Below are positions 8,171 through 56,529 of a stretch of DNA of 64,000 nucleotides, piece by piece (positions within the stretch are counted from its first letter, which is position 1; each line of letters begins with the position of its first letter). A model generated the notes under the pieces. The model did no database searches and was not told the DNA's origin. It saw nothing but the letters and a program-made list of their open reading frames with translations. The DNA is from Sporopachydermia quercuum (taxonomy: Eukaryota): positions 1,364,001 through 1,428,000 of the forward strand of contig BCGN01000003.1 of assembly GCA_001599295.1 (NCBI GenBank), in the 5' to 3' direction. A program made the translations under genes and the position numbers.

Positions 8171-11100
8171 ATGACATCAAACAGTGAGAATCCCAACCGG
8201 GTGGTTCTTATCAGGAGCGATCAGAATTCATCTTCAAACAATAACTCCAATCTGAACCCTTCTTCTATTCTCAGTCCTCCTGATACTGATGCATTAGCTA
8301 CATTCTCTGAGAAGCAATCAGCAGCAGGAAATAACAACATTGAAACCAATAGACCTTTTTCCCCACCAGAATCACCTTCGAATTCAACTAATCTAGAACA
8401 ACTTGATACTGGAATCAGATCCCAGGACGCAGACCATTATAAAAGAGCTCAAAGCCTTATAGCATCTCTTGGTGTAAAACGAAGGAAGTTGTCCAACAGA
8501 ACTGCCATGCAATCACGTGATCCCGCACCGGATTCCCCACCCAGAGGTACCGATGACAACGAGAGCAGCACTAATACTGCTAGTGCTAACTACGATATAA
8601 ATCCTACAATACCTATCAGGCTTACCTCTGACAGTAGAAATGCTCTCACTCCGTCTAATTCGACTCTTTTGGCTACTAGTTTTCTTAATAATGAACAAAT
8701 AGTTGGAACTGCTGAAGGGGCCAGTTTCCTTGATGAATTAACATCTCGTACTGAACAACATTTGAATCATGGCAGAACTGGATCAGCTCTCCAGAACAGA
8801 GACGAGAATCGCAGCAGATCTTACTACAGCTTAGCCAGAAGCCTGAATCACGAACTACTAAATCGATATCTCAGGTCAGAGATGATGCATGTTTCTAATC
8901 AATCGCGATTACTGCAAGATTTAGGTCTCGTTGCTTCCAGTTCCACTAATTCTGCCTCCAACTCCGGCACAGCCATATCAGGCGCAGGTGGCTACGATCC
9001 TGATCATTTCTATCGTACAGATCAACTATTCCTACCTTACAAAGCATATTTCAATTATCAAAATCTTCATACTGATGCCCGTTCGGAACCTGATGTAGAT
9101 TTCGATTCGGACGCATCTCATATATCGGATACTTCTGATGAAGCAGATCAAACTGTACAAAGGATTTCTAATATGGATATTCATTGTTTGGAAAAGAATG
9201 CTGAAATACTAATGAAACTGACTCATAAAAACCGACAGTCTCCATTTTATCTAGCTAGAGATGTGGCTACGATAGCAACAGCTGTAGTTGCTAATCCACG
9301 CACTGGCTCTGGAGCTTTTGATCCCAATACACCAAACGAGGATTACCTTGATCGTGATTTGCTAAGAAATGTTAATAAATATAAATTATATTCAGATGTC
9401 TCTGATTATATATATAATTCCGATAGCGAAGATGAGTATATTTATGAGGAGGAAGAAGGAGAAGAAGAAAATGATGAAAAGGTTTCACAGCTAATCAGCG
9501 CAATGAACGCGGAAGCAGGTTCTAGCAGTATAAAAGATGTTGATGGTAAAGCAACCTCTAGGGATAAAACTACTATAGGAAATACTACTGATCCTACAAA
9601 AGCTACGGAAGCTCCTACAGACAAGTCACCATCTGCTATCAAACTCACTCCAAATTCTATTTCCTCTGAACCATTTTCTACTATTAAATCAAGTCAAGTA
9701 CCTATTTCTAATAATACTAATGATTTATTCAACCCGGGCAGTGAAAAATTGGATTCAAAATCAGCTAAAACAATACAATCAAAAGGTATCGATACCTCCT
9801 ATAACGAAGACTACAGATTGCAATCTGACAGGTTAGCATATGCTGTTAAAAAGCAACCTGGAGACAAATTCAACGATTCTGTTACATCGACATTCTTAGG
9901 TCATCAGAAACTACGTATTGAACGAGGAAGAAATTTCAAAAACAACCTGACAGTGTTTTCGTGTGAAATTAATTCTCATATTGTTGCTGTGAACTCCAAA
10001 TTGTATTTTTATCCTGTGAAAGAGCATCTACGTAAATTGGATCTCTCACGGTTTCATTCTCCAACTGGGTCACCAGAGCAAAGTCCTAGGAGAGAGGAAG
10101 ACATTCCTGAGAATGATCCAGAGACTGGTAATAGTGATATTGATAGTGATAGCAATACTGATACTGATACAATTAGGAATAATATTAATAATAACAATAC
10201 TGGTGATTCTCATGCTTTTCAACCGACAGCAAGAGATGATAATACAAATATCAACAGAAACCGAGTTTCAGAAGCTGAAAGAACAAGATTCACGCCTAAT
10301 ACTGTTTTCCATTATCAGCCTTTCGATCTACCAAACTTCTGCATTGAAACTAGACCAGAAAGCACTACCCCAAGAGATCGAACAGTTGCCTCTTGGTCTT
10401 ATTATCCCCACACCATCAATTTCCTTAAAATCGCCTATTTTCTCGACCGAGAAGCTCTCATTGCAGCCAAAGATGACGGCTACATCTTTATATGGTTCAC
10501 CCACAGATTGGACATCAATATCAAAACATCACCAGGTTTCGACCCCACAGGGCTTGCCAATGGTGTTGATTCAATTGATGTGCGATTAAAACCAGATTTC
10601 AAATTGAAAGTTGGTGCATCTGCCTGGGGTGTTGATGTTCACAACGATTATAATATGATTGTTGTATCGGACAATTCACCGGTGGTTACTTTATTCTACT
10701 ATTCAACAGAGCATGAGCCGAGACGTGAGCAATACTTTGATAGCGACTCCTTTGAAACATCTAGACCAAGACATTTATATGCTGATCCTTCTTTAACTAA
10801 AGGTACGTTCTACGTTTGCAAGAGCAACTGTCTTATGAATAATATCCCATCGGTGTCGTTTATACATAATGATCCTGAACAAGAGGAAGAAGAAGATAAT
10901 GAGAAGCGAATGGAAAATGACTATAAAATCAATCCTTATAATGGAAGAACTAGAACTTTTGACATAAGTGAAAAGCTGAAATGTATTGTTTATGTTGCTG
11001 CAGTTACTATTGGAGATGAACTGATTATTCTTGCTTTTGAAATGAATAAGGTGTTTGGTCCCTTACCATTGGCGAAAGGATTCTCTACTCTTGAAGAAAT

Positions 11101-12640
11101 GGTTTCAGGGCCTATGAAACATAAATCAATTAATCCTGCTTTCAAAAGAGTACTGTTCAAGCTACCAAAAGTCATTAGTAGATCAATGCTGGGTGAATAT
11201 GGTTGGAGTTGTACTTCTGCTACTGGTGATATGTTTAAAGAAGTGAATAGCGTTCAAGCAGCCACTGGTGATGTATGGTTGCATGAGAAGGTTGTGCTGG
11301 ATCGTATTAAACGTAGAAACAATATGATTGGGCTGGCGATCGATGAGGCGAAATATGATCATTTGGGCCTAGCAGCATCATTTGAACATTACGACGTACC
11401 AGTAGTTGATATGAATTATGTTTATAATAGACAACTGGCAAGTATTGATGATATTAGAGGCAATAGTATTCTTGGCAACGATGATGAAGGTGCTGGTGGA
11501 AATTCTGGGAATAGGGGTAGAAACAATAGGAATAGAAACAATAGGAGCCCCATGAACAGTACTAGAAATAGCAGTAACCATGCTAATGCCACTGCTATTA
11601 ATGATGATGATCTAATAACCTTAGGAGCACCTGGAGGCATTTCGGCAATTAATTCAACATCAGAAGGTCGTTTCACTGCTTCTGAAGATGAAGACGATGA
11701 CGAGGACCAGGATGATGATGAGTTTGAAGACGAAGATGAAGACGACGCTTTATGGAGAGCCAGAAGGAAAGGGAAACAAGGTTCAGAGTCATCATTTCTA
11801 GTTAAGTCCGATCAAATTCGAAGGATTAAAAAAGTATATGATTCTTACTACCTAAAACAGCAGCGAGGGAAATGGAAACAGTATTTGGGCTCTAAGAAAA
11901 CTTCTAATAACAACAACTTCAACAAAAAAATGATGAAAATGACTGGCAATAGTAGCAATAGTGCTAATAACATCAATGACACTAATAATACCAAAAATGC
12001 TGCTAGTGATGACGTTGGAGATCCACTGCAATCAGCTTGGGAACCAATTCCTTGTACACCTTTCAATAACCAGTTCTTATTAGTAACATCATCCAAGAAA
12101 CTGGGGCTATTCAGAACTAATAAGTTAGTATGCAACGCGTCGACAACTAGCATATTCAATGGATGTACTAGTATTATGCCATTTGTTGATAACTTCAATG
12201 ATATTCAACTATCTAATAGATTAAGCATTGTTAAGCTGATTCCTCAACTGTCAGCAATAGTAGTTGTATCCCAAATTGGACTAGTTTCGCTGTTCAGGTT
12301 AACAAAATATCGAAATTCGCTGTATTCAATGAGGCAAGAGCTAATATTTCCTAATTATAAGCTTTTCATGATGTGCGACAGAGGGTATAGAACTGTTATA
12401 GGAATAACAGTTGTTAGTTATAATGAGTTGACTGGCAAGTATTATGATGTTGAGCTTGATTGGAAGAATAGTGTTAGAAATGAAAGATATTTCGATGAAC
12501 AAATGACTCAAGGAGTTGCTAATGATTACAATAACAGGAGGTACTTTTTGCATTTGACTTATATCGATGGGTTAATAATTAGTTATGAGTTAAAGGTCAG
12601 AAGAGATGATGAGTTATTCATTGATTATGTTATTATATGA
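8171..12640 (+). CDS. CRT10: Crt10-like WD/beta-propeller protein with long low-complexity insertions, 1489 aa
   Basis: FKNNL, PHTINFLK...DDG, SAWGVDVH, NNIPSVSF, NRLSIVKLIPQLSAIVVVSQIG and LFRLT motifs typical of the CRT10 family. Confidence 0.85.
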   Translation: MTSNSENPNRVVLIRSDQNSSSNNNSNLNPSSILSPPDTDALATFSEKQSAAGNNNIETNRPFSPPESPSNSTNLEQLDTGIRSQDADHYKRAQSLIASLGVKRRKLSNRTAMQSRDPAPDSPPRGTDDNESSTNTASANYDINPTIPIRLTSDSRNALTPSNSTLLATSFLNNEQIVGTAEGASFLDELTSRTEQHLNHGRTGSALQNRDENRSRSYYSLARSLNHELLNRYLRSEMMHVSNQSRLLQDLGLVASSSTNSASNSGTAISGAGGYDPDHFYRTDQLFLPYKAYFNYQNLHTDARSEPDVDFDSDASHISDTSDEADQTVQRISNMDIHCLEKNAEILMKLTHKNRQSPFYLARDVATIATAVVANPRTGSGAFDPNTPNEDYLDRDLLRNVNKYKLYSDVSDYIYNSDSEDEYIYEEEEGEEENDEKVSQLISAMNAEAGSSSIKDVDGKATSRDKTTIGNTTDPTKATEAPTDKSPSAIKLTPNSISSEPFSTIKSSQVPISNNTNDLFNPGSEKLDSKSAKTIQSKGIDTSYNEDYRLQSDRLAYAVKKQPGDKFNDSVTSTFLGHQKLRIERGRNFKNNLTVFSCEINSHIVAVNSKLYFYPVKEHLRKLDLSRFHSPTGSPEQSPRREEDIPENDPETGNSDIDSDSNTDTDTIRNNINNNNTGDSHAFQPTARDDNTNINRNRVSEAERTRFTPNTVFHYQPFDLPNFCIETRPESTTPRDRTVASWSYYPHTINFLKIAYFLDREALIAAKDDGYIFIWFTHRLDINIKTSPGFDPTGLANGVDSIDVRLKPDFKLKVGASAWGVDVHNDYNMIVVSDNSPVVTLFYYSTEHEPRREQYFDSDSFETSRPRHLYADPSLTKGTFYVCKSNCLMNNIPSVSFIHNDPEQEEEEDNEKRMENDYKINPYNGRTRTFDISEKLKCIVYVAAVTIGDELIILAFEMNKVFGPLPLAKGFSTLEEMVSGPMKHKSINPAFKRVLFKLPKVISRSMLGEYGWSCTSATGDMFKEVNSVQAATGDVWLHEKVVLDRIKRRNNMIGLAIDEAKYDHLGLAASFEHYDVPVVDMNYVYNRQLASIDDIRGNSILGNDDEGAGGNSGNRGRNNRNRNNRSPMNSTRNSSNHANATAINDDDLITLGAPGGISAINSTSEGRFTASEDEDDDEDQDDDEFEDEDEDDALWRARRKGKQGSESSFLVKSDQIRRIKKVYDSYYLKQQRGKWKQYLGSKKTSNNNNFNKKMMKMTGNSSNSANNINDTNNTKNAASDDVGDPLQSAWEPIPCTPFNNQFLLVTSSKKLGLFRTNKLVCNASTTSIFNGCTSIMPFVDNFNDIQLSNRLSIVKLIPQLSAIVVVSQIGLVSLFRLTKYRNSLYSMRQELIFPNYKLFMMCDRGYRTVIGITVVSYNELTGKYYDVELDWKNSVRNERYFDEQMTQGVANDYNNRRYFLHLTYIDGLIISYELKVRRDDELFIDYVII

Positions 12641-13341: not shown

Positions 13342-14868
13342 CTAAAATCCCAAATCAATACCTCTGCTAACAGAAGCATTTTCATCTAGCTCATTACCTT
13401 CAAAATCAGTGTTTTCTATTAATTGGAGATGTTGCCGTTGCTTATAAATTGGTGAGAAATTAAATGACAATTGAAACTGTTTCTCAAACTTTGGTATTCG
13501 ATAGAATTTCTGGTTGAATGAAATAAGATTAGTATTGAAATAGATAGGTGATTGGTCTATTGTGCTGTTGAAAGTGTTGATAGTAANATTATCAGCTTTC
13601 TTGGTATTATTGCTATTCGTCGCTATGTCATTGTTATCATTGATATCGTCAGTACCACTGTCATGCTCGTTATGTTCCNCATTGCTATCTTTGTTCTTGA
13701 ACATCACATTATCTCCAAAATACTCTAGTAATATCTTATCCAATTGAGTGTAAAAGTCTCGCTCTGGAGCAAATATATATTCATTGGTCTTAGTATTGGT
13801 CATGTTACCATTCTCCTTTTTAATGATATTATCATCACCATTTGCTTTATCATAACACCAGTAATAAAATCCATTATTAGAATTTTGAGGAATTACTGAT
13901 AGATCATATAACGTTATACCTGCTTTATTATAAGTCCCTGTTTCTTCAATAATTATTTCAATAGGCACCAAGTGGCTTGCACTGCTACTAGTACTGCTGC
14001 TTTTGTCATCTGGTACAGTGAAAGTGCCTAAATTGAGTATGATGTATTTATTTCTTGGAACAATGTTCACAATCATACTAGAAGGATAGAATGTTGCTAT
14101 TGTCTTCATATTATTCTCCTTAGATAATTCACCGTTGGAAAATAAACCAGAGCCTAAACTATTGCGACTAGTATTATTGCCATTGATAGATCTATGTCTA
14201 GTGTAGAAAGACTGTCCTGTAGATTGTCCTGAAATATTAAAAACTGAGGAAACATCACCATTAATTGTATTCACATCACCTTGGGGATTTCTCCTCATTC
14301 GTATTGAAAATCCAATATTACTGAAACCTCTGGTGTAATCATGTAAGGAAAAGGCTATTCGCAATGAATGCACGCCTGGTGATATCAATGTAGGGTACTT
14401 GAAGAATACATTATATGCTTCATTAATTACAACTTCGCTATTTGGCCCATTTTTTGAATTGAATAGAATCTTATCATACGCATGTAAGACAAAGTACTTT
14501 GGGTTGAAATATATCTTTTTGCATGAAAGGATTTCGTAAACTAATGGCCAACTGTAATAGAAAGAAGGACGTTGTGTTGTAGATGACGAATGACCAGGTG
14601 GTAACTCAATAGCTTCTTGAGCAGCCAATTCTTTCTTGATAATCTTATCAAGTAGTCTTCTTTTCTCTCCAAAAACCCCAACAAAGGCTGACAATTGGCC
14701 TTCAATTTGCTGTATAATACTATGATAATTATGTCCTAATAGGTTCTTGACTTCAAGCCTGTAGAGTTCATTGTATAAAGCATAGAAATGGGTATTGACA
14801 AGACGTAATTCTGGAGCATTTTTCAAGATCAAAAGCAGGATTTCTGTCGGCAGAATGTCCAATGACAT
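13342..14868 (-). CDS. UCC1: F-box protein, Ucc1 (YLR224W)-like
   Basis: N-terminal F-box-like LDILPTEILLLIL...ELRLVNTHFYALYN plus SWPLVY, resembling recalled Ucc1 (ELRAVNKYFYVLHN, SWYIVY). Confidence 0.7.
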   Translation of the reverse strand: MSLDILPTEILLLILKNAPELRLVNTHFYALYNELYRLEVKNLLGHNYHSIIQQIEGQLSAFVGVFGEKRRLLDKIIKKELAAQEAIELPPGHSSSTTQRPSFYYSWPLVYEILSCKKIYFNPKYFVLHAYDKILFNSKNGPNSEVVINEAYNVFFKYPTLISPGVHSLRIAFSLHDYTRGFSNIGFSIRMRRNPQGDVNTINGDVSSVFNISGQSTGQSFYTRHRSINGNNTSRNSLGSGLFSNGELSKENNMKTIATFYPSSMIVNIVPRNKYIILNLGTFTVPDDKSSSTSSSASHLVPIEIIIEETGTYNKAGITLYDLSVIPQNSNNGFYYWCYDKANGDDNIIKKENGNMTNTKTNEYIFAPERDFYTQLDKILLEYFGDNVMFKNKDSNXEHNEHDSGTDDINDNNDIATNSNNTKKADNXTINTFNSTIDQSPIYFNTNLISFNQKFYRIPKFEKQFQLSFNFSPIYKQRQHLQLIENTDFEGNELDENASVSRGIDLGF

Positions 14869-19593: not shown

Positions 19594-21474
19594 TCATTGT
19601 CTAATACCCGGCCTTTTCCTCCATAATATTATAGCAGGATCCTGATCGGGATCAACCCAATGGAACATTCTTTTATCTTTTTCATCACGAAACTCTTGAT
19701 AAATTTGCTCCTCAGGTGTACTATCAAGTTTCATATGACGTTTATCAAACTCTTGAAGCAATTTCCAACTAATATCAATGACTGAAGGATTCTTTGGCTC
19801 TTTATTCCAGAACGAATTCAAAAATCCATAAAGCCCTAGAATATAAAACCGTTCACCGGATTTATCATTCAATTCCTCATCAGAATTCTCGATAATAGCT
19901 TGATAGTTTCCGTTATTTAAATCAATTAGATCGTCATAACAATTCACAATCAGTCTACAGCAGCTCAGTTCTTTCATGTGTTGTAGTTTATACCTTAGAC
20001 TTAATGATCTATCCGGATTCCATGAAAGCCTTGTTCTCTGTCCACCTAAATTACGAACGGCATATAATCCAAAGCTTGAACAGGTAGTAGCTAATGATGC
20101 AAAAAGAATAGTATGAAACGCATAAATTGTACTGAGATGTAACGGAAGTTTCCATAGTATTGATAACGATAAAATTATCAGTTGTGATAATGAATGCACT
20201 GTGATATAGCCATAAGTTATCATTGGAACTAATTTCTCATAAATGTATTGCTTGTTCAACGTATCTAAATATATCTTGCTGTTGTATGCTGTATCAATGA
20301 TTTGAAAAGGTACTGTGAAGTTGTTCTGGCGAAGACATTGTCTAATAGCTATGTTGATTATATCATTTGATAAATAGTCAGTGAACTGTCTACCATCCTG
20401 TTTTACGCTGATATTACAATTAATACTCTCAACATATTGTTCAATTGCAAATAGTATATTATCGGGGGATGGAATTGGCTCATTGATCAAATATGTCTTG
20501 ATTATATTATCAGTGATGTTAACATTNCTCATAACATAGTTATTCTTTTTGAATCTTGAGTCTATTTGACAATTAATCTTCCCACTAATATAGCCATTGA
20601 ACAGTTTCCCTAACACTAGTTCATTATCAATATTTTCTGGAGATTTTCTTTTAAATTTAAATATGTTCCTTAATGAAAACGACGGACTGTTTGATTGTTC
20701 TTGATCAGCATTAACATAAATTGATTCGAGTCTCTTTGCTGCCAAAATTGCGTCTATAACCAATCTCTCTTGATCATCCTCCAGTTCCTCCTTATTGTTG
20801 CTTCCGGCTATTCTCCCTTGTATAATATTGTTGTATAAATTCAATCCTTTGCGAATATCTTTCATTTTCTTCAGTATAGTAATAGGGTCTGTATGAGCTT
20901 TCGGTTGAGCTATTGTTCTCAGCCAAAGCTTTAGTCTAGTAACTATTTGGCTATCTGATGGTGAGTTAAGTGTCTGCAAATATTTAGGCAAGGAAAATGC
21001 TGATTCGATTTCAATTTCGTTTGAGTCATCATTGAACAAAATCCAGGAATCGAATCTTGATGACAATGCTTCATAGTTGAATGGCTCTTCCATAAATAGG
21101 TTACCTTTGCTTTCACTAGGATGCAGTTGAATATTGAATACTGGCGTTGTTGATAAAGAGTTCTTCGGCTTTTCCAGTATCACTGGAGTCAATTGTTCAT
21201 GTTGTGTTTGTTCTTTTGAGCTGTCCTGTATCGTTTCCTGAATTCGTGTTTCCCGGATCCTTCTCCGTCTCATGTTTCGAGACATGTTCCCAAACCCTTG
21301 ACCTTGAGAGTCATGATGCTGTGAGTAGTATCGTATTTGTTGATGTTTCTTGAATGATTCTTCATAGATTTTCGGTATAATCAATGAATTTCTAGACATT
21401 GTCTCAACAGGTTTCGATATTGACAATGGCCAGTGATGAGAACTCATCGTTATATCTCTCAGTGGTTTTCTCAT
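19594..21474 (-). CDS. Uncharacterised protein, probable mitochondrial membrane protein, about 626 aa
   Basis: Long ORF with first ATG at 21474 (ORF track starts at TTG). Basic presequence-like N-terminus with IRYYSQ, hydrophobic segments in the C-terminal third, and a C-terminal WVDPDQDPA motif. Confidence 0.75.
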   Translation of the reverse strand: MRKPLRDITMSSHHWPLSISKPVETMSRNSLIIPKIYEESFKKHQQIRYYSQHHDSQGQGFGNMSRNMRRRRIRETRIQETIQDSSKEQTQHEQLTPVILEKPKNSLSTTPVFNIQLHPSESKGNLFMEEPFNYEALSSRFDSWILFNDDSNEIEIESAFSLPKYLQTLNSPSDSQIVTRLKLWLRTIAQPKAHTDPITILKKMKDIRKGLNLYNNIIQGRIAGSNNKEELEDDQERLVIDAILAAKRLESIYVNADQEQSNSPSFSLRNIFKFKRKSPENIDNELVLGKLFNGYISGKINCQIDSRFKKNNYVMXNVNITDNIIKTYLINEPIPSPDNILFAIEQYVESINCNISVKQDGRQFTDYLSNDIINIAIRQCLRQNNFTVPFQIIDTAYNSKIYLDTLNKQYIYEKLVPMITYGYITVHSLSQLIILSLSILWKLPLHLSTIYAFHTILFASLATTCSSFGLYAVRNLGGQRTRLSWNPDRSLSLRYKLQHMKELSCCRLIVNCYDDLIDLNNGNYQAIIENSDEELNDKSGERFYILGLYGFLNSFWNKEPKNPSVIDISWKLLQEFDKRHMKLDSTPEEQIYQEFRDEKDKRMFHWVDPDQDPAIILWRKRPGIRQ

Positions 21475-27190: not shown

Positions 27191-29488
27191 ATGGCGCTTA
27201 CCTCTTCTGTCATTACGATAGGATATGTTGGACAAAAAGGAGCTCCTACGATTGTATATCGAAGTGGTTATATATTTAAGTCATTATTTCATAGCAGTAG
27301 CATCAACAACAAGGGAGAAAATAGGGATGTCAAAAGAAACTACAAGAAAAGAGGTAATGGTAGAAAGTTTTCAGATGAGAATGATTTCAATAGAGGAATT
27401 CAAAGGAGCATTCAGTTCAGAAAGAGGAAACCGAAATCCAAAGAAATAAATGCATTGTTTCAATCAAAAATTGTAGAAACCCCGTTTCGCTTTCCTGGGT
27501 TGAAAACAAAAGGACCAGTTCCATTCGATGACCTCAATTCCGAAGTTTTGAGTGAGACTTCTGGCATGCAAGTCCTTGAAAAAGAAGCTGTTGACCTACC
27601 TCATATAGATGATGTGTTGTTTTGCCCCGGCCCTCATATGTCATTNCCGCGTTATGAACAAGGTGTACCAGTTCCAAACTTCAAAGCCAAGGATGTTGAA
27701 AAATATATCTATCAGGTTAGAAATCGTTCAGCCAAGGATTATGACGATTATTTGTCAATGGCAATGAACAGCAAAGACTTTTCCAAATATGAGAAGGACT
27801 TCAATGAAGCAAGTGAAGAAGTTCGGTTAAACGTTCGATCCAGTGTTTTGGCGGAGTTGTTAGTACCAGTTCACCATGTTATCAGTAAATTCAAACCAAT
27901 TCCCTGCAAAGACCTTGCTAAAATAGCAACAAGAGAAGTTGGAAAGGTAGCTTTGAATGATATCTATACCCATAATGAATATCGATGGCGATCTGTATAT
28001 ATTCAATATAATACAGGTCTAGATAGTTATACATTGCTACCAGATTTATCAATAGTTTCTGATTTTAATGGTACTCTCAATGATGAATACGTCAAGACAG
28101 AATTACATGATCGTGAAGCTAGAAAAAATAAACGATATGAAAGAAAAGGGGTAATATTTGCATTGAATACTGCTAGAGAGCTAAATCGAGGGCTCACTGT
28201 ATTTTCTTCAAGCAAGTTTAAGAACAATAATTTGGTTCACTCTCCTTTTTATGATTTTTTTACTACTCCAATCATCAGAAAATATCAAAATAGAAATACA
28301 AACACAGATCTAAAAGTATTCAATGAAGTCCTAACTAGTATCCTGAGAGGTAGGCTGCTTACTTCTTACTTTTCTGCAATAAATGATGGAAAAGACGGTA
28401 TTTTGGTTGCATACAGAAAAGCGGCAGAACCCCCTGAAAGGCTTAGAGATTCCTCAAAGAGAAAACCTGGGTTGAGGCACAACCTGGGAAATGACGATAC
28501 TTTGGAAGGTGTGGATAAATTTGGGAATCCTACGTATCATAATTATGGCTATGAGTATCTGCCAATTGATCAGTTGGACAAGTTTTTCCATACAGGTGGC
28601 AAAGACCTTGATGCTGTGCAACTTTCGAGAAATGGTTTAATGGTTAAAGCAACTGAGACACCTGCATCCGAAAAGCAGAGAGCGTTTGAAAGTATACAGA
28701 ATGCAAAGGAAGCATCAGGAAGTGAAGCCAACGAAATCAGTGAGACTGAAACTTCTGCTGATCGTTCCGACAGCGAGAAGAATGAACCTTCTGTTGGTTA
28801 CGCTTATGGATATTCTCCCAAAATAGTGAGATCTGCGCATGATGTAGAAAGTACGATCAAAGAAATAGAAGCTTCAGAGGATGTTTATGATGAGAAAATG
28901 TCCAGGAGAATTGCTGGAAAAGAGTATGAATTTTCAGTACAATTTCTACAACAATTAGTCACTAGAATAATAAATTCATACAAAGAAAACTGTGCTTTTT
29001 CTGACGAAACAGTTATAAACCTGGCGTTCAGGCCCAGCTTTGATGAGGATACTGATCAGTTTGTTTTACAAGTCTTCACATTTCCCACTGAAACTGGTTT
29101 TGCTTATAATGTTAATAAGAAGTCAATTTCGCGTGCTTTAGCAAGACAACAATTGTCGAATTTGGTCGCTAGCGATGATGTTGACTCAAGAACTCTACGT
29201 ATGGCTAAAGAAAGGGTTAAGATGGAGTCCGATAGTCTTTACAAAGCCATGAGAGCTTTTAGGTCAAGACATATTCCGAAAACTACTTTGATAAATTTTA
29301 CTTTTGAGCACAAGTTTGACGGTAAGCCTCTTCATCCTAGCAGATTTCCTTTAATTGACGCCAATACAGAAGACTGGGATGTCGAAGTAAAGTCGTGGTT
29401 AGAAACTGATGAAAATGCCATTGCGAAAGCAGTCTATAGTATGGTATGGGAGAGTCAACTTACTATTCGAGAAGTAAAGATTGAATAA
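27191..29488 (+). CDS. PET127: Pet127-like mitochondrial RNA-processing protein with degenerate nuclease motifs, 765 aa
   Basis: Collinear Pet127-like blocks: HIDDVLFCPG, SSVLAELLVPVHHVISKFKP, GVIFALNTAR, GKDGILVAY, GYEYLPIDQLD, EYEFSVQFL. Basic presequence-like N-terminus. Confidence 0.7.
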   Translation: MALTSSVITIGYVGQKGAPTIVYRSGYIFKSLFHSSSINNKGENRDVKRNYKKRGNGRKFSDENDFNRGIQRSIQFRKRKPKSKEINALFQSKIVETPFRFPGLKTKGPVPFDDLNSEVLSETSGMQVLEKEAVDLPHIDDVLFCPGPHMSXPRYEQGVPVPNFKAKDVEKYIYQVRNRSAKDYDDYLSMAMNSKDFSKYEKDFNEASEEVRLNVRSSVLAELLVPVHHVISKFKPIPCKDLAKIATREVGKVALNDIYTHNEYRWRSVYIQYNTGLDSYTLLPDLSIVSDFNGTLNDEYVKTELHDREARKNKRYERKGVIFALNTARELNRGLTVFSSSKFKNNNLVHSPFYDFFTTPIIRKYQNRNTNTDLKVFNEVLTSILRGRLLTSYFSAINDGKDGILVAYRKAAEPPERLRDSSKRKPGLRHNLGNDDTLEGVDKFGNPTYHNYGYEYLPIDQLDKFFHTGGKDLDAVQLSRNGLMVKATETPASEKQRAFESIQNAKEASGSEANEISETETSADRSDSEKNEPSVGYAYGYSPKIVRSAHDVESTIKEIEASEDVYDEKMSRRIAGKEYEFSVQFLQQLVTRIINSYKENCAFSDETVINLAFRPSFDEDTDQFVLQVFTFPTETGFAYNVNKKSISRALARQQLSNLVASDDVDSRTLRMAKERVKMESDSLYKAMRAFRSRHIPKTTLINFTFEHKFDGKPLHPSRFPLIDANTEDWDVEVKSWLETDENAIAKAVYSMVWESQLTIREVKIE

Positions 29489-46941: not shown

Positions 46942-47973
46942 CTAATCTAACACTTCACACACCAGGACTCTACCCGATTCACCAAAAGTACTGCCGTTAT
47001 ATTGTCGAACAAATCTCCAAGCGTGTCTTCTATCAGTAAACTGGAAAACTGAAACTGAAATGAAATTCTTTCTATCAGCATACACTTCTAAAATTGCTTG
47101 TGATTCATCATCAATAAAATCATACGTCCATAGGTCATTTATTAGGTCGTTTACTCTCAATCCCAATGGTAAACCTTTAACTAGAACACATTGGTTTCTG
47201 GGAACCGTTAAATTCACTTTCAATTCATTTGCTTCTACTTCCGCGTCTGATGCAAATTTAAAGGATATCAGCTCTCCATTAATAGCAGTTCCTTGTGTTT
47301 CCAACATAAATACCGCAGCTTCTTCTTCTGATGGAAAAGTAAGAAAGTATTTATTCAATGGCATAAGTGTTGATGGATCTCTTGCTCGCCGGAGTTCAAA
47401 TTTCACACCTTTTGTAATATTGGTTATGTACTTTCTCAGGCCAGGCAATGGGTATATTTTCAGAAAATCCGATGCCACACAACGAGTATGAATGTAAACT
47501 TTTAGAGTAGAAGTAACTATTTCAGTAGTAGATAGGAGCTTTATTGCTTCTGTCCCTGGTAGAAGTCCTGAAACATCTGTTAATGTGTCAGGCTCTGCTG
47601 CTTCATCTGATGTATAGTTTTCTTCTGAGAAAACTGATTCTAGTAAATGTTTATTATTATTTGTCCCAATATCATTGAAGTAATCTCTATCGTTTATGCC
47701 GTCCTCTGGAGCCGAATTCCTCGTTATCTTCTGTATAGTTGACTCAGGGTCAAGAGATCTATATTGAGATGGTTCTTGACGGTCTGAGACTCTCCTTTTC
47801 ATCAACAATTCTTCTGGTGATTCTGGGAACAAAGTTCTCATGAAATGGTTCAAATTTGAGATTTTGGTAAGCTTTTTCCCGGGTGCGACCGTTGTATTAT
47901 GTCTTATAAATCGTGTTGATTGGCTCAAGCATTTGAGTCCGTTCAACGGTTTATACTTTAGGCGTGACAGCAT
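46942..47973 (-). CDS. PET54: Pet54-like mitochondrial RRM-like RNA-binding protein
   Basis: Presequence-like N-terminus. DFLKIYP...FELRRARDPSTLMPLNKYFLTF...ING and LWTYDF...FVRQYNG resemble recalled Pet54 blocks. Synteny with HSV2 supports the call. Confidence 0.65.
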   Translation of the reverse strand: MLSRLKYKPLNGLKCLSQSTRFIRHNTTVAPGKKLTKISNLNHFMRTLFPESPEELLMKRRVSDRQEPSQYRSLDPESTIQKITRNSAPEDGINDRDYFNDIGTNNNKHLLESVFSEENYTSDEAAEPDTLTDVSGLLPGTEAIKLLSTTEIVTSTLKVYIHTRCVASDFLKIYPLPGLRKYITNITKGVKFELRRARDPSTLMPLNKYFLTFPSEEEAAVFMLETQGTAINGELISFKFASDAEVEANELKVNLTVPRNQCVLVKGLPLGLRVNDLINDLWTYDFIDDESQAILEVYADRKNFISVSVFQFTDRRHAWRFVRQYNGSTFGESGRVLVCEVLD

Positions 47974-48236: not shown

Positions 48237-50386
48237 ATGTGATCTTAACGTAAGGAGATGGTAATTATGGTATTTAGGGAACAAGTATGGAGAGAAAGGG
48301 AAAAGATAATGATTAATGGGAGTGAATGACTGGCTTACTTAGCAAATTTGTTCAGAAACAAAGAAGAGTAGTAGAATTCTAGTAATAGTTTGAGAAATAT
48401 AAATGTACAGCTTAAAGAGAAACATCAATAATTGAAGAAATATGCATCATCATGCGTAGTCATGCGTGAATCTCTAGAGAAAAGATCAATGTATTGTATT
48501 GATTACTTCTGTTATATCTTTTAAGACAAATTTAATATATATAGGGAATAGTACTATCTATAGAATCTGAAATGGTGACTACATCGCTGTTTTAAATAAG
48601 TTCTGGTCGTCGTGAGTAAACCAATATTGTTGTTTCGTAGATCTCCGTTCAGTTCAGTCCTCACTGAAACGAATGCACTTTAAATGGAACTGTTTCACTT
48701 GTACTGCTGAAATTTCCCTTATAAGACAGGTATTAACGTATTCACCAAATGCTTGAATTTCAGAACAACTAGTAACATTTGTCTCAGGCGCTCGCCATTG
48801 CTTTCGATACAGAAAGCCAACCCCAACTTGGCCAATGGCACGGTCACTATATTCTCTGTTCTACTGTCAGTACTACGACTATGGCTATGACTTGATATCG
48901 GACAGCAGTTTATTGATTTCTTTCCAATAATTAAATTTTATATGCTAAAAATNCACGTTTCCATAATTCACTATTGTATTAGGTTCTTTGTGCTGAGACA
49001 TGCATTGAATTCATTTTCATCAATCTTCAAATAAGAACGGAACCAGCCTGAAAATGTCACTTGCAAAGAAGAATATATAAACCTTATCTCACGTGTCCCT
49101 GCATTCAATAAATCCGAGAGATGAGATGGATCGGTACCAGCAATGAGGAAGAAGNTCAAAGGAAGTCAATTTGGCCTGAACAAATAAAAATGAAATTCCC
49201 AAACATTACACCCTAATATGTCAATTTGTTTTGTTTAATTCATCTATAGTTAAATATAATTATTTGTTCTACGAACTGTTCAGTCATACAAAAGGTATTT
49301 TCCATGGGCTTGTATATAATTGGAGTCTTTACTGATTATATAAGCAAGAAAGAGAGGGGTGACATTTCGTCATGAACATCTGTTATTTTCAGGAACAAAG
49401 TTGTAGGTTACTGTTCTTATTTTTACAGAATGTTTTTTGATGGAAACACAACAATTTATACTTAATAATACTAATATAATCCATTTCAACCATCATACTG
49501 AATTTTCTAACTACTTTACAAGTTTTCTCGTCTAAGACCTCCATGAAAACTCCAAGATCTCCTGCTTTGATTNTAAGTGTAGCCTCACCATACAATCAAA
49601 GAACATGACATACCATGACTCTCTCTTTCTCGCTACTTATCTTCAAAACCAGTCCAGGAGCCCAAGCAAAAATGCACCTTACTACTCCCAAACTAACTTA
49701 ATTGTTTTTGCTCAGCGACAACTAAATATCTTAGGGCTNTGTAACCAATATTCAAGCTTTCTTTCTCCAGTATTCTATACGTTCCCCAATTCCTCTTTGG
49801 CTACTTCTGGTCTTCTGATGGCTCTTCCTTCATTTTATCTGCATGACATGCATAATTCCTGTTATCCCCATTATTCCAACTAAGACAAAACCCTGACAAG
49901 TAACCCCAACTCGTTTCTGTGTGTACTGGAACCAAGCATACACATTATTGTACTACCAATTATTATATGGAATCCTCATAACAGATATATCTATTCCTAT
50001 CAATTATAGATAAATAGTATTGTCAACATCTACAGATTATATACTGATAATTAGTTAATTGTTATTTTCTATCGGTATTTCTTGATATTTTCTTATTCAC
50101 GGTGAAGTCGTCTTCAATGTTATATGACATATAATTGCTAGTCTTGCTTAATTTTACATTGACAGAGCGACAGGTAGACCTTGTAACCTTGTAATGGGAA
50201 TAATATGAAGTAGAAAGAAAAAAAAGAGAAAAGATAGACTGTTTGAGAGCAATCAAATGTCAAACAAATAAGGAATATAATAGAGAGACAAGTGAACAAA
50301 GCTAGCTATCCAGAATTGGTAAAGATAATCCGGCGAACAGAAAGAAGAGGTATTTAATTATCTTGATAATCTTCACCCTGTATACG

Positions 50387-50705
50387 GTAAGTAACCCTGA
50401 CAGGAGCAGAGGTAATTGCACAGTAGCTGATAATCGTTATTGGTGATTCTGTTGTTGAGATCTACGTCTTCTGCGAGCTCAAGATTTATCGCCAGCAGAT
50501 TTTCATTTTTGTTATTTATATTTTTGGTATTCAGTTATTGAATCCTCAAGTGCATCTCCTGCCTCTTATCTAATTGCTGTTGTGTTGATTACTCATATTT
50601 GCACTGGAGCCTTGATAGCTGTTTTGGACATATTTATTAGCAGTTGCAATATTTTGGTAATAGCAGGAAGCTCTTTGGTGTCCTATTTCTAGCTAATAAT
50701 TCTAG
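50387..50705 (+). other. Candidate 5'-UTR intron of CDC25 (319 nt)
   Basis: GTAAGT at 50387, U-rich body, GCTAAT at 50692-50697, TAG ending at 50705. ATG lies 122 nt downstream with an in-frame stop between. Confidence 0.5.
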
Positions 50706-50827
50706 GCTGGTTCCCTTTAGCACCTTTTCAACCATTTAAGTGAACTTCCTTACGAACCAGAAGCTTAATTAACTAAGAGGCCGAGCGGTATACACAACGC
50801 TCCCAATTTTTATAACTATCGATCACC

Positions 50828-53800
50828 ATGGACCCTTTGGACCCATTGGATCCTGGAGATCCTCTAGCTAGGCCCATTTCAGCAGAAATAAACAAAATAT
50901 CAACAAATACTAGTAACGCCAATAGTGCTGCATTGGCATCACATTCACCGCCAGCTTCGCCTTTATCCCCCCGATCAACAGGTGCCGGCACGGGATTCAA
51001 TATTGGTTTATCACAGCTTCACAATGACATCTCATCACCATTATCAGGCTCCCCTGACGCTCTAAGGCCTAGGAACTTTTCAAAACTATATCCTTTATCA
51101 TCATCTCTCACTTCTGATACATATCTGCGTTCGCCTACTATACCTGCCCATCGGGAACCAAGCGTATCTACATCATTTCCACCAGGTGGAGCAGGATCAA
51201 CAGGATTGCCGCCACCTGCACATTTATACCATGATTTNGTGAGAGCGATAGCAGACTACGAAACATATGAACCTGGATTCTTATCGTTCAAAGCGAATGA
51301 TGTAATTGGAGTAATGAATAAAACAGCTTCCGGCTGGTGGGATGGGATACTCTATATGCCAAGCGATGATCCTCATCCTCATAGTTCACCTATAGCGTTA
51401 TCAAGGGGCTGGTTCCCTTCTAACTTCACCAAGACAGAATCTGCGTATCAATACTCTCTAAACAGCAATAATTATATGCCTTCAAGATCCTTATCGCCAG
51501 CTCCAGGTCATATGTCATCATTCAGGCATCAACTGCAGCATAAAGCAAGCTCCCTAATGTCCTTTCAGTCAGATGAAGGTGACAGTCTGGGTTCATCGTT
51601 ACCGGTGTCTAGAAAAGGCTCAGCTGTGTCATATGTTTCCTCTGATAGCTCCTGCGCTCATAAACCACTTGAAGGGGTTTCTCCAACAATACATCCAAGC
51701 AATCAAAGCTTAGCTGATTCTACTATGAGCCCCTTAGAGAGGACAGAGTCTCCTGATATTAAGCATGTTGCTGCTGATCCTTCTGATCCAATAGTAGCTT
51801 CTGAATCCGCTTATCCGGTGAACTCCACTCTATCAACCGTCCCGGATAACATTAGATTCACTATCCCAGACGAACCATGTCCTGCAAGACTGTGGTTTCC
51901 TCAAACAACATCGGACGGCCGCCTAGTATTCTGCGAACCAATAAGCAATAAGTATTCCGTTCAATTGCCCTTTGAAAAACCTATCGAAGGCGAAGAAGGC
52001 TTTGACGACAGCCAAGAACTAACCATCCCGAAATCCAACGAAGTCCCTACTGAAGTCGCATCCTATGCTGAAGAAAACACCAAAGAACTGTTCCCTTTTG
52101 ATAGCAAGTTCACGAATCTGCTATTGAAGCCAAAGCGATCGGGATTTTTGAAAGAGAAGATATTTGCTCCTCAAAGCTCATTTCGTCTTTCAGCCGCAAA
52201 ACCACAAGTGTATGAATATTTCCTAACCCGCGCAACTGACTTGCGTACATGGGATCAACTATTAAATGCCACAGAAGCAGTGATCCATGATCTATTAGGA
52301 GCTATGAAGGATAACAAGGTACGGAAGTTTCAATATAAACTACGATCGTTATGCCGAATATCTACAGTATTGCATTTGGACTCCAGATTGACATTGTCAC
52401 AGTTTGAACAAGAACGTTTCAATGAAAATGCGACTTCAGCTGAGAAAGTCGAATTCCAAGCTAAACGCAACGAAATAAGGCTGCTTTTAAGAAATCTGAT
52501 NGACGTGTTATCGCAGTTAAGTATAAATGGTGATTTATATTTCAGTTTAGTGGGAAAGCAGAAAGCTGGTGGTTTGGTGCAGGCAGTTAAGGAGGCAAGC
52601 TATGATGGTGGTGATACGACAAGAACGTCTCCTACTGATATTGGAGATACTAGTACTAATATTAGTATAGTTAGTACTGCCGGTACTGCAGATAGCACTA
52701 TTACTGCCAAAACTACTGTTGATGACAATAAAAACAATCAAGCAATATTGGATGATGAAGATCCTTTGAATCCTTTACCTTCACGTATACCATCTAATAG
52801 TTCGAGCCCTCGGAAGCCTGCAAGCAATATCCCTGGTGACAAATCGTCTGTTGGCTTGAACCAAGTGGAAGATCCCCTGACAGCCCATGAATATTTCCTG
52901 CACTGCCAAGCAGAGTCAAATGTCTTTATTGATGCTGTGAAAGCTTTCCACACTTATTTCTCTGGCAAATCAGAATCAGTGTCCTCTGCTGCTTCAACAC
53001 AAGGATACCTTCCCGTCAGCTATCCACGTTTTATTAAAAACAAACTATCAGCAGCCAATTGGCGGAATATCTTATTGAAAGACCAAGTAGACGCCGACTC
53101 GGTTGAACCATCAGAACTAGTACTGGACGGTCAATTAGTGTCAGTTGTTGATCGCCAGAAAAGCCTTATCCAAGGAATCCTGCAGCAGGTTATTCATGTT
53201 TTGGAGTTTTCAGGAAACAATCGATCAGATGCTGAAAGTGTTTTAAGCAGTTTGAACGTGAAGCAGCAGTCTCAGGAAGAAAAACATGTGAATATTATCA
53301 ATTCTGTTCATGGAATGTTAAATGCAATGTCTGGTCTACTTAATATCATTGAAAACATTGATTTCTCGGACTTCAGATCGTCTCATTCGGCAACTGGGTT
53401 ATTTAATAATGATAATATGAACGTGGGTGCGAATAGTGATGGAAATGATGCTATGAACTCTCCTAATAGTCCTGACAGTCATTTAAATGAATTCGAGAAC
53501 GAAATGCATCATTCTTTGCTGTACTTTTCATATCCTATAGTACTTGATTTCTTTGATTGCAAGCAGGCTTTATACGATTGCGTGGCTGAATTAATCATTT
53601 GTGCTCAAGCTATCACTCTTGACGATCCGCGAGTATTCAGGAATATTGTTGAGTTTGAATCGGATCCTTACGATGATGAGGAAACCGGGCTTCGTATTCT
53701 TGATGATTCTAGTGGTGGTGAAGGATCCGCTCCTCCTGATGCTGGCCCTGGGGGCGGTGCTTCTTCTGTCTCTTCTGCCACAGACTCAGTATCTGGGTCG

Positions 53801-55696
53801 ATAAGAGAATTTGACCAGAAGTCCTCATCGAAAGAAACTGAAGAAAAATTGACTTTAGGCCTGCAATCAATGATTATCACAGAGCGGGAAAACGCTTATT
53901 TGGATTTAGACCATGTACTGCTTGAGACAGTTTACAGATTGGAGAACCAAGTGCATTTCTTGCTGAATCTACTGCAACAATTGGTTGATGAAAGAGAAAC
54001 GCTGGTGAATTTTGCCTCTAGAATAATGAACGGTGATTATAGTAAAAATATGGAAAATATGAAACAACAGCAAAGGGAATATGGAGATGATGATGACTAT
54101 GACGATGATGATGATGATGATGATAATGTTCTTGTTAGTGGTGTTGATAATGACAGTACCAATGTTCAAGGAATTAATGTTACGGTTGATTATAATGCAG
54201 ATACTGATACTTCCAGCATTCTAGACAGTCGTGGTAAAGCCCGAAAGATTAAACAAGGAGTTGTTCCAAATACAGGAATCATAACTGACAACCAANCAGA
54301 AATTGATAGTAATCGGGCCAGCGGATCAATAGGAAGTCCTAAACAACTATCGAACGTTCCATGGTTCCTTACTGCTGACTATGAAGATGAACTGGTATTC
54401 TCATCTAGAGGAAGTATTAGAGGAGGCACGAAGCTAGCATTAATAGAACGACTGACCCATCATGAGTTTCTGGACTCGGGATTCAACTCTACGTTCTTAT
54501 TAACGTTCCGGTCAATGTTTCAGCCGTTAGAATTCTCAGAAATCCTTGCTAAACGATTCACGATCCAACCTCCAGAGGGTTTATCATATAGTGAATATAC
54601 CGTATGGGTTGAAAAGAAACAGAAGTACATTCGTTTGAGAGTAGTGAACATTCTGAAAACATGGTTAGAGTCGTTCTGGTCGCCTACGTACGAAGAAGAA
54701 GATCCAGACACTAGCTTATTAAACTCCATTCATGAATTTGCTAGTCAATTGATGAACCAGAAGCATCTGGCAGCAGATAAGCTATTACATATAACAGAAC
54801 AAAGAATTCAAGGCAAGGAACCATCTAGAAAATGGACATACCCAACGTTAAATCTGGATCAAGCATTACCACCTATTTTACCCAGGAATCTAAAGAAATT
54901 CAAAGTGATGGATATCGATTCGTTGGAATTAGTACGACAGCTGACAGTGAGGGAATCGAAGCTATTTTGTCGTATCACCTTCTTCGAGTGCCTGAAACGA
55001 GTCGGCGGCAGCAAATATGGTGCTACTAAACCAAGTGTTAATCATATTGCCGAGTTTATCTCGAATTCTAATAAATTGACTAATTGGGTGTCATATATGG
55101 TGCTTAAAAGAGCAGATATCAAGAAACGAGTGCTTGTTTTCAAGTATTTCGTATCAGTTGCAGAGAAATGCCGCCATTATAATAATTTCTCCTCTATGAC
55201 TGCTATTATTTCAGCATTATATTCAAGTACTATTCATCGGTTAAAGAAAACATGGGCACTATTACCAGAAAGAACTCTTGTTGCATTAGAGAATATGAAT
55301 AAGCTAATGAACTCCAACAGGAACTTCAATGAATACAGAGATATGATGAGACTGGTAACAGCCCCATGTGTACCATTTTTTGGAGTTTATCTTACTGATT
55401 TGACGTTTGTTGAGAACGGGAATCCTGATTATGTGCAAGGAGACTCTAATATGATCAATTTCAGTAAAAGGGTAAAGATAGCAGACATTATAAGAGAAAT
55501 CCAGCAGTATCAGGCTTTACCATATGTATTTCATGAGGTGAATGAATTGCAGGGTTTTCTTGATGAAGGATTTAATTCGGCTCCATCTATAGATGATCAG
55601 TATCAATTATCTTTAGCAATGGAGCCTAGAGAGATGGCTACTGGGTCAGGTTTACAGCATGATTTGACTGGGAAGTCTGTTAGGCAAATTCGATGA
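50828..55696 (+). CDS. CDC25: Ras guanine-nucleotide exchange factor (SH3, REM, RasGEF), 1622 aa
   Basis: SH3 (VRAIADY...SGWWDG...RGWFPSNF), REM (RGGTKLALIERLT, FLLTFRSM) and GEF domain (NNFSSMTAIISAL, PCVPFFGVYLTDLTFVENGN, INFSKR). Confidence 0.95.
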   Translation: MDPLDPLDPGDPLARPISAEINKISTNTSNANSAALASHSPPASPLSPRSTGAGTGFNIGLSQLHNDISSPLSGSPDALRPRNFSKLYPLSSSLTSDTYLRSPTIPAHREPSVSTSFPPGGAGSTGLPPPAHLYHDXVRAIADYETYEPGFLSFKANDVIGVMNKTASGWWDGILYMPSDDPHPHSSPIALSRGWFPSNFTKTESAYQYSLNSNNYMPSRSLSPAPGHMSSFRHQLQHKASSLMSFQSDEGDSLGSSLPVSRKGSAVSYVSSDSSCAHKPLEGVSPTIHPSNQSLADSTMSPLERTESPDIKHVAADPSDPIVASESAYPVNSTLSTVPDNIRFTIPDEPCPARLWFPQTTSDGRLVFCEPISNKYSVQLPFEKPIEGEEGFDDSQELTIPKSNEVPTEVASYAEENTKELFPFDSKFTNLLLKPKRSGFLKEKIFAPQSSFRLSAAKPQVYEYFLTRATDLRTWDQLLNATEAVIHDLLGAMKDNKVRKFQYKLRSLCRISTVLHLDSRLTLSQFEQERFNENATSAEKVEFQAKRNEIRLLLRNLXDVLSQLSINGDLYFSLVGKQKAGGLVQAVKEASYDGGDTTRTSPTDIGDTSTNISIVSTAGTADSTITAKTTVDDNKNNQAILDDEDPLNPLPSRIPSNSSSPRKPASNIPGDKSSVGLNQVEDPLTAHEYFLHCQAESNVFIDAVKAFHTYFSGKSESVSSAASTQGYLPVSYPRFIKNKLSAANWRNILLKDQVDADSVEPSELVLDGQLVSVVDRQKSLIQGILQQVIHVLEFSGNNRSDAESVLSSLNVKQQSQEEKHVNIINSVHGMLNAMSGLLNIIENIDFSDFRSSHSATGLFNNDNMNVGANSDGNDAMNSPNSPDSHLNEFENEMHHSLLYFSYPIVLDFFDCKQALYDCVAELIICAQAITLDDPRVFRNIVEFESDPYDDEETGLRILDDSSGGEGSAPPDAGPGGGASSVSSATDSVSGSIREFDQKSSSKETEEKLTLGLQSMIITERENAYLDLDHVLLETVYRLENQVHFLLNLLQQLVDERETLVNFASRIMNGDYSKNMENMKQQQREYGDDDDYDDDDDDDDNVLVSGVDNDSTNVQGINVTVDYNADTDTSSILDSRGKARKIKQGVVPNTGIITDNQXEIDSNRASGSIGSPKQLSNVPWFLTADYEDELVFSSRGSIRGGTKLALIERLTHHEFLDSGFNSTFLLTFRSMFQPLEFSEILAKRFTIQPPEGLSYSEYTVWVEKKQKYIRLRVVNILKTWLESFWSPTYEEEDPDTSLLNSIHEFASQLMNQKHLAADKLLHITEQRIQGKEPSRKWTYPTLNLDQALPPILPRNLKKFKVMDIDSLELVRQLTVRESKLFCRITFFECLKRVGGSKYGATKPSVNHIAEFISNSNKLTNWVSYMVLKRADIKKRVLVFKYFVSVAEKCRHYNNFSSMTAIISALYSSTIHRLKKTWALLPERTLVALENMNKLMNSNRNFNEYRDMMRLVTAPCVPFFGVYLTDLTFVENGNPDYVQGDSNMINFSKRVKIADIIREIQQYQALPYVFHEVNELQGFLDEGFNSAPSIDDQYQLSLAMEPREMATGSGLQHDLTGKSVRQIR

Positions 55697-55710
55697 TAGG
55701 TTAGGACTAA

Positions 55711-55782
55711 GAATAGGACCAGGAATGAGAATGAGAATGGGAATAGGAATAGGAAAGGGAATATGAATGGGAATGTGATGGG
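55711..55782 (+). repeat. Degenerate hexamer microsatellite (GAATRR)n just after the CDC25 stop
   Basis: gaatga gaatga gaatgg gaatag gaatag gaaagg gaatat gaatgg gaatgt. Confidence 0.7.
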
Positions 55783-56529
55783 ATATTTCTACTATTAGGA
55801 ATATTAATAGAAATTTAGTGTTAGCCGTACTGAGCAACTGAATAAGCAACAATAGGCATGACTGTTCATGGTAAGACTATATATAACTATCTATAATTAT
55901 TCATGGTTATTAATACTGTAAATAGCTTACTTCGTTGTATGTCTTATTATTATACCAGTGTTTCTCATCTTACTGTTCATCTTACTGTACAATGCAATAA
56001 GTTTAACTTACTTATACTTCTTTATATGTATTATTTGTTATTTCGATATCAATAGTTCCCGTAGTCTTGTAGTATAATAATCATATAATTATATATTTAT
56101 AGTATGATGATTACATAANTAATTAGTTCTGGATGCCATAAAGATGCGCTGAATCCACTGATTAGTCAGTTAAGTTCTAGTCATACCTCATGTCAATTGA
56201 ACGAATGATGCCAATGTTAATGCTGATAATTGAGTATCTAGATTTCAGTCAGTAAAAATATCCAAACAGTTATACTGTTAGTTCCAATAAGCTAATTGNC
56301 TAAGCACCAGTATTAAAGTAAAATGGTCCAAACAGAGGGTTAGACGGTCTATAATAGAATCAGCATTTATGTAGCACCACTGACATTACATTATCTACTG
56401 ATACTAGCACTACAATCANCATCATAACCGAAAGCATGAAGCATAGTTATTATATTCAATAAGAAGCTTTTGGATGATAATCTTCATCATTACTGTACGT
56501 TATCTCTTCTGTTACAGCTCATATTCTCA

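Follow-up and report, generated by a model that had tools for sequence, protein, structure and literature searches.

A gene in a 64,000-nucleotide (nt) stretch of DNA from the yeast Sporopachydermia quercuum (hereafter, the window) probably encodes a nuclease-dead duplicate of Pet127 that works in mitochondria as a non-catalytic factor, a reading to which we assign a probability of approximately 0.58. The gene occupies positions 27191-29488 of the plus strand and specifies a protein of 765 amino acids (aa), labelled P0001 and called the 765-aa paralog, or simply the paralog, below. We propose that the PET127 duplicate retained an open reading frame (ORF) and the complete DXO/Rai1-like fold, and that its metal-binding and 5'-phosphate pocket decayed, with the canonical second copy supplying the 5'-3' exonuclease activity. 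The duplicate would bind transcripts, the mitochondrial RNA polymerase, or both via its retained Pet127 surface and basic segments, and would either shield RNAs from the active Pet127 or tune transcription.

Sequence comparison indicates that the paralog is a true, full-length, and very remote homolog of Pet127. A profile made from the host canonical protein and the 120 top-ranked homologs out of 2,220 listed (121 canonical proteins) scored the paralog at 49.6 bits, compared with 5.7 bits for the best control (300 shuffles and one reversed copy, 299 of which were reported) and 1.1 bits for the next-best of 43 stop-free stretches of the window. The Pfam family PF08634 (Pet127) was the sole Pfam family found for the paralog at E <= 0.1, with 15.8 bits (E 0.0095) for the full protein and 13.3 bits for the core alone; sequence matches to PF08652 (Rai1/DXO) or PF05091 (eIF3d) were not found at the same threshold. 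The Pet127 profile check proposed in the original prediction was borne out by the 121-protein profile, but the Pfam score stayed below the curated cut-off of 25 bits. With hhalign, residues 565-753 were aligned to the C-terminal part of Pet127 with a probability of 97.4 (E 9e-12, 166 columns). An ungapped scan with nine conserved blocks placed six of them best at their colinear position among approximately 740 positions (starts at 139, 211, 266, 335, 378, and 451), in agreement with the claim that Pet127-like blocks occur in the expected order; the three blocks that were not best there are those made of single catalytic motifs. Identity to 65 Pet127 members (65 of 72 members of at most 900 aa) was 15-21%. 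The features of the gene are listed here, with the evidence for each.

27191..29488 (+): whole intact ORF, 765 aa, a full-length, highly diverged Pet127 paralog (profile score, hhalign, block scan, shuffles)
27191..27316 (+): residues 1-42, S/T-rich acid-free N-terminus, possibly an atypical mitochondrial presequence (heuristic)
27317..27490 (+): residues 43-100, very basic (net +11), which may be an RNA-binding tail or resemble a nuclear localization signal (composition)
27605..27655 (+): residues 139-155, conserved N-terminal Pet127 block VLFCPGPH (block scan rank 1/748, z 4.8)
27821..27901 (+): residues 211-237, equivalent of the STSSMT...H..S helix block (block scan rank 1/738, z 6.0)
27986..28048 (+): residues 266-286, hairpin of strands preceding motif I, which anchors the nuclease core on its upstream side (rank 1/744, z 3.7)
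28052..28102 (+): residues 288-304, probable motif-I helix, GHSLE equivalent (MAFFT; model helix 286-309)
28157..28177 (+): residues 323-329, FALNTAR, motif III in the original prediction, disfavoured here (MAFFT, block scan, gap settings)
28193..28273 (+): residues 335-361, best-supported motif II-III remnant (block scan rank 1/738; MAFFT; hhalign differs, with low confidence)
28307..28315 (+): D373-L-K375, literal DLK opening the ESFERE-equivalent helix (rank 42/755 as motif III)
28322..28414 (+): residues 378-408, helix and DGILVAY block (block scan rank 1/734, z 4.7)
28535..28591 (+): residues 449-467, YHNYGYEYLP..D...H, the best-kept Pet127 block (block 451-467, rank 1/748, z 7.6)
28616..28882 (+): residues 476-564, low-complexity insert rich in acidic residues (position shared with the long insert of the canonical protein)
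28883..29449 (+): residues 565-753, Pet127-type C-terminal part with an A..EY.FS helix, a strand sheet, and P...W.V (hhalign)

The original prediction had left two readings side by side: a nuclease-dead paralog, or the sole Pet127 of a lineage in which mitochondrial 5' trimming was lost. The search that it recommended, for a second PET127 with an intact site, succeeded on contig C1 of the assembly (G000; L002:4551-7571, minus strand). This canonical PET127 encodes 1006 aa, scores 324.7 bits against PF08634, and keeps all five catalytic residues (E286, Q331, D333, D346, and K348), and its model is confident through the site, with blocks at 84-97 in the predicted local distance difference test (pLDDT). 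For T. marneffei Pet127, the five residues of the nuclease core are named as E340, Q386, D388, D401, and K403 (PMC9014873). Because an intact canonical copy is present, the 765-aa gene is a paralog and the enzyme was not lost from the lineage; the proposed loss of 5' trimming thus falls away, and a sole Pet127 is extremely improbable. The canonical protein is also long, and its large acidic insert, which is Thr/Glu-rich, sits where the paralog has its own insert. RAI1 of the same genome is a separate gene. Searches of the genome's proteins with the paralog returned only itself, and a Pfam search of the genome missed the paralog; given that this search is blind to it, a third, equally diverged copy may exist.

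The catalytic residues appear to be lost from the paralog in all three alignment-derived registers. In 121/121 canonical proteins, the residues E, R, Q, D, D, K, and R, and later K, Y, Q, R, and H, are invariant, and the spacing from Q to D is 15, as it is from S340 to D355 in the paralog. Six MAFFT modes were applied to the core only, full-length L-INS-i having been dropped after misaligning the core. Canonical D346 was aligned to D355 and K348 to F357 in all six modes, and Q331 to S340 and D333 to K342 in five, with a gap in the sixth. This best-supported motif II-III register also replaces the Arg with T359, and T391, S392, S395, and I397 stand in place of the invariant K, Y, Q, and R of KYSxQAR (6/6 modes). 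The invariant Glu of motif I (T. marneffei E340) was aligned to D298 in four modes, and to K302 and N297 in one each. Residues 331-354 contain neither Asp nor Glu, and the sole Gln within residues 287-376, Q366, has no x-D after it. The hhalign register sets YDFF against the family GDFL, deletes motif III, and places Q-x-D at I361/R363; like the others, it is without the Gln, the motif-II Asp, and the Lys.

The register from which the original prediction had argued was a different one. The strings it quoted are present, FALNTAR at 28157-28177 as well as GKDGILVAYRK, but the equation of KTELHD with RSQLD and of FALNTAR with FDLKTRA, by which D-x-K became A-x-N, ranked 91/738 in the block scan, whereas residues 335-361 ranked first. 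It scored 1.8-23 points below the D355 register in 6/6 gap settings and was picked by 0/6 MAFFT modes, and we set it aside as probably out of register. KTELH is most likely part of the motif-I helix, contrary to the statement that the LGHSLE-type helix is not recognizable. The central claim nonetheless survives in the better register (28193-28273), in which D355 is kept and the Gln, the Asp, and the Lys have become S340, K342, and F357; with the canonical copy on C1 and these three residues missing from every alignment produced, the description as a nuclease-dead paralog was supported. The decay centres on the site: near-invariant columns were kept at 6/30 positions in the E286-R402 span compared with 22/40 outside it (Fisher p 0.0036), a comparison in which the span was picked post hoc and the outside columns also serve as alignment anchors. 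In T. marneffei Pet127, D388A left no detectable activity and Q386A left 6-7%, and Gln and Asp were strictly conserved in every Pet127 ortholog found in that study (PMC9014873). K342 occupies the position of D388, which is needed for activity, and this supports the view that the site is dead. Judged by these substitutions, the paralog very probably has no nuclease activity.

Residues 154-765 were modelled with AlphaFold2 from the Pet127 alignment. The model had a predicted template modelling score (pTM) of 0.71 and a mean pLDDT of 67, and a DXO/Rai1-like fold is predicted from it. Among 48,161 chains compared by structure, the top 10 were all DXO/Rai1/eIF3d (Z 9.3-10.5, root-mean-square deviation (rmsd) 4.2-5.5, 212-240 residues aligned), the best being 5k4b_A of eIF3d (Z 10.5, rmsd 4.5, 231 aligned), and the rows after them were helical bundles with Z <= 8.0. 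The model of the canonical copy matched the same ten chains at Z 14.1-17.6. Since eIF3d was the top match of this active copy too (Z 17.6, rmsd 4.2, 285 aligned), what the match shows is the fold, rather than any loss of activity. With Pet127, a processive mitochondrial 5'-3' exoribonuclease (PF08634; S. cerevisiae, C. albicans, and T. marneffei), the paralog shares colinear blocks over its whole length and the C-terminal part; unlike the family, it replaces the Gln, the motif-II Asp, the Lys, and the KYSxQAR residues, and its genome has a canonical gene as well. As far as sequence can tell, this is the pattern of a pseudo-nuclease, with an intact gene, a retained fold, lost catalytic residues, and an active paralog alongside.

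A similar case is Drosophila Cutoff, a fast-evolving Rai1/DXO paralog of the same fold whose pocket residues are not conserved, and which was proposed to bind RNA 5' ends and suppress termination (PMC7061269); it has been named a non-catalytic DXO homolog (PMC7293010). Cutoff differs in being a nuclear protein of an animal PIWI-interacting RNA (piRNA) pathway, and in deriving from Rai1/DXO, not Pet127. In addition, Cutoff reportedly keeps the side chains that contact the RNA backbone, whereas the corresponding Gln is replaced in the paralog; we take this Gln to be DXO Gln280, by motif position only. Yeast Mrs1 has a RuvC/Cce1-like nuclease fold and thus one other than DXO-like. It is a mitochondrial RNA cofactor, of group I introns, which is derived from DNA junction resolvases (PMC2813881), and offers a yeast precedent for a mitochondrial RNA factor of nuclease origin. 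The cap-binding domain of eIF3d is a non-catalytic DXO-fold domain (PMC7293010).

By analogy with Cutoff, eIF3d, and Mrs1, we infer that the paralog is a mitochondrial RNA- or polymerase-associated factor, for which the role of a scaffold or regulator is plausible. S. cerevisiae Pet127 was reported to bind the mitochondrial RNA polymerase Rpo41 directly via residues 48-215 and to inhibit it, and a nuclease-dead allele still bound Rpo41 (PMC8555793); co-purification of Pet127 and Rpo41 (PMC2896726) and participation of Pet127 in 5' processing of 15S rRNA (PMC9892005) have also been described. The conserved part of the Rpo41-binding region is residues 178-208 of the S. cerevisiae protein (PMC9014873), which, by the offset E346 = E286, would map near the VLFCPGPH block kept in the paralog.

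The results that weigh against a nuclease-dead mitochondrial factor concern the model and alignment of the site, a DLK trimer, the N-terminus, a C. albicans mutant, codon usage, and ortholog searches, and are taken in this order. The active-site modelling called for in the original prediction recovered the DXO/Rai1/eIF3d fold; at residues 288-328 and 343-370, however, pLDDT was <50, and the side chains of the site could not be placed. Because the Pet127 alignment underlies the model, the agreement in fold is in part circular; with Foldseek, nothing matched at E <= 0.001, the top 10 being all Rai1 at E 0.05-0.18. The confidence of hhalign was only 0-3 of 9 over residues 287-371, where its register differs from that of MAFFT. 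A change of the former site to a strongly basic surface has little in its favour, with a core charge of +6 compared with a family mean of -1.9 and a family maximum of +7.

The literal DLK at residues 373-375, for which approximately 0.05 occurrences are expected by chance per 130 residues, is the same trimer as canonical motif III and lies 18 residues downstream of D355. The paralog might still be an enzyme in which D355 is the motif-II Asp and D373-L-K375 is motif III after a deletion of approximately 30 residues, or in which K375 represents a Lys that migrated to the next core helix; such a product may be a nuclease or a decapping-like hydrolase with altered specificity. D298 may retain motif I, as aligned in 4/6 MAFFT modes, the superfamily has documented cases in which the Lys or Glu moved to the second core helix (PMC3424549), and D346 = D373, when forced alone, was best in 1/6 gap settings. 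The full forced register, D355 together with DLK, however, scored 8.0-34.3 points below the main register in 6/6 settings, and neither the motif-II Gln nor the later invariant Gln400 has a counterpart in the paralog. Moreover, L374/F377/L381/I384 repeats the Y379/F382/L386/L389 pattern of the ESFERE helix, by which the DLK is explained as the start of the equivalent helix. Of the alternative acidic and Lys residues that could refute a dead site, then, the DLK is indeed present, out of register, and the only usable arrangement was this hand-forced one; we consider a rearranged but active site quite improbable.

Returning to a non-catalytic role in mitochondria, the mitochondrial location of the paralog is only likely, since its acid-free N-terminus has a single Arg and is followed by the basic residues 43-100. 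Its first acidic residue is at position 43, and 3/19 ORFs of the window are acid-free over at least 40 residues, a count that is heuristic only; one of the three is an aminopeptidase-P gene, presumably encoding mitochondrial Icp55. As a presequence, the N-terminus is atypical, with a net charge of +3 and one Arg in residues 1-40, compared with +9 and five Arg in the canonical copy. This weak presequence, together with the K/R clusters of residues 43-100, which to our eye resemble nuclear localization signals, would suit a dead paralog that moved to the nucleus or cytosol and became an RNA- or protein-binding factor there, as Cutoff did. Set against such a move are the 42 acid-free residues and the mitochondrial location of the parent family (PMC9014873), and we regard it as unlikely. 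In C. albicans, the catalytic mutant of PET127 equals the deletion, and the non-enzymatic role was judged secondary (PMC9014873).

The frame at 27191-29488 is open over 765 codons, as originally claimed, and is flanked by a protein kinase gene and the MED14 gene. Its sequence contains a single ambiguous base, translated as X. Contigs from two public runs cover the gene with 0 differing letters and 0 gaps, and are possibly the source of the window DNA itself; a coding match sought in public runs of two other organisms was not found, and no RNA data set was listed among the public runs that carry the gene. Read in frame, the gene has a positive synonymous codon score (negative out of frame), which at 0.007 is the second lowest among 19 ORFs of the window. 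No ortholog was detected among 7,996 candidates at E <= 0.001 from a set of 5.8 billion (proteins of 420-1339 aa only) or among 1,835,955,588 representatives, the Atlas gave no usable match, 0/115 pattern matches in metagenome contigs were orthologs, and none of 177,635 PDB sequences matched at E <= 10. These searches with a single sequence miss canonical Pet127 too, and hence the absence of orthologs is not shown. A query of the Atlas with the canonical core returned, when Pet127 clusters were excluded, only eIF3d, RAI1, and NARG2 clusters (0.76-0.79). The branch of the paralog is saturated, at 10 changes per column with the LG+C20 model and 3.85 with LG+G4. This extreme branch, the low codon bias, and the lack of an ortholog in the databases searched are what would be seen if the duplicate were functionless, or nearly so, and drifting under relaxed selection. 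Such drift is hard to square with 765 stop-free codons after saturating divergence, when none of 2000 base shuffles gave a stop-free stretch longer than 155 codons, with the 22/40 near-invariant columns kept outside the site, and with G+C contents at the three codon positions of 0.46/0.36/0.31, the order GC1 > GC2 > GC3 resembling that in neighbouring genes. We think drift improbable.

In the trees, the paralog was placed among Saccharomycotina outside Lipomycetales, its nearest row being the host canonical copy, with a support of only 48. At this support, the trees cannot date the PET127 duplication, although the placement would fit one within budding yeasts, perhaps in this lineage. A grouping of the paralog with three filamentous ascomycetes was tried and rejected (p-value of the approximately unbiased test (p-AU) 0.0008, with a long-branch caveat).

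The genome also contains two intact T7-type RNA polymerase genes, which score 617 and 539 bits and are 33% identical over 874 columns.

L008:2767-6723, contig C2 of G000 (+): divergent, long-branched T7-type polymerase gene
L007:4029-8234, contig C1 of G000 (-): other T7-type polymerase gene (family match)

The divergent polymerase keeps recognizable catalytic motifs. Among the homologs listed, 120/120 score higher with the canonical polymerase than with the divergent one, and a quick 40-row tree joined the latter to seven long-branched sequences, one of them from Blastobotrys adeninivorans, with a support of 100 and a long-branch warning. Two Pet127 proteins and two polymerases suggest a paired module, in which the divergent polymerase has the dead Pet127 as a dedicated partner and mitochondria have two transcription modules. 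We hold this to be a doubtful proposal. No relative of the paralog was detected, by single-sequence searches, in the species carrying relatives of the divergent polymerase. Complex predictions that paired residues 100-475 of the paralog with the divergent polymerase (residues 85-700) scored 0.00 in two runs, for which alignments were unused, the partner fold was uncertain, and no controls were folded; they weigh neither for nor against the pairing. A general duplication of the mitochondrial RNA machinery was considered and not seen: there are one Mtf1-like gene and three RNB genes, identities that we assume. If the proposal were true, the active Pet127 would serve canonical Rpo41, and the dead one would be paired with the divergent polymerase and would regulate that polymerase or cap transcripts against 5'-3' decay. 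This would be a mitochondrial counterpart of Cutoff, with the nuclease and polymerase-regulating roles of Pet127 split between two genes.

Several other observations were made. No COX1 match was found in the whole assembly, and hence the mitochondrial genome apparently lies outside it. The window is budding-yeast DNA, dense in genes, with a G+C content of approximately 36%, rising to approximately 41% at 50000-56000 over the start of a gene for a 1622-aa SH3-RasGEF protein. A 343-aa ORF at 46942-47973 (-) matches no Pfam family over the cut-off (BRAP2, E 0.009); with a strongly presequence-like N-terminus, its first acidic residue at 51, and a net charge of +9, it is possibly an unrecognized mitochondrial protein. 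ORFs of 356, 508, and 626 aa at 507-1577 (-), 13342-14868 (-), and 19594-21474 (-), respectively, have no Pfam match at E <= 0.1. The CRT10-family gene at 8171-12640 (+) encodes 1489 aa, of which only residues 940-1474 match Pfam, leaving the long N-terminal part unannotated.

No report of a catalytically dead Pet127 paralog was found in the literature searched, which was mostly without subscription papers, nor was a relevant paper on a second mitochondrial polymerase in yeast. Neither 'paralog' nor 'duplicat' occurs in the main text of PMC9014873, and its Table S1 gives one entry each for 10 ascomycetes and, for some other species, several entries that may represent either copies or separate assemblies. 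Pseudo-nucleases of the same fold are already known, and the probably dead Pet127 paralog was seen in this one genome. Paralogs of this kind, which fall under the Pfam cut-off and are invisible to single-sequence searches, may have been overlooked in other yeasts. The main role of Pet127 is disputed, between enzymatic activity and regulation of the mitochondrial RNA polymerase (PMC8555793 vs. PMC9014873), and why PET127 is retained at all has been called perplexing (PMC9014873). A genome with one active and one apparently dead Pet127, together with two polymerases, would be a natural separation-of-function experiment.

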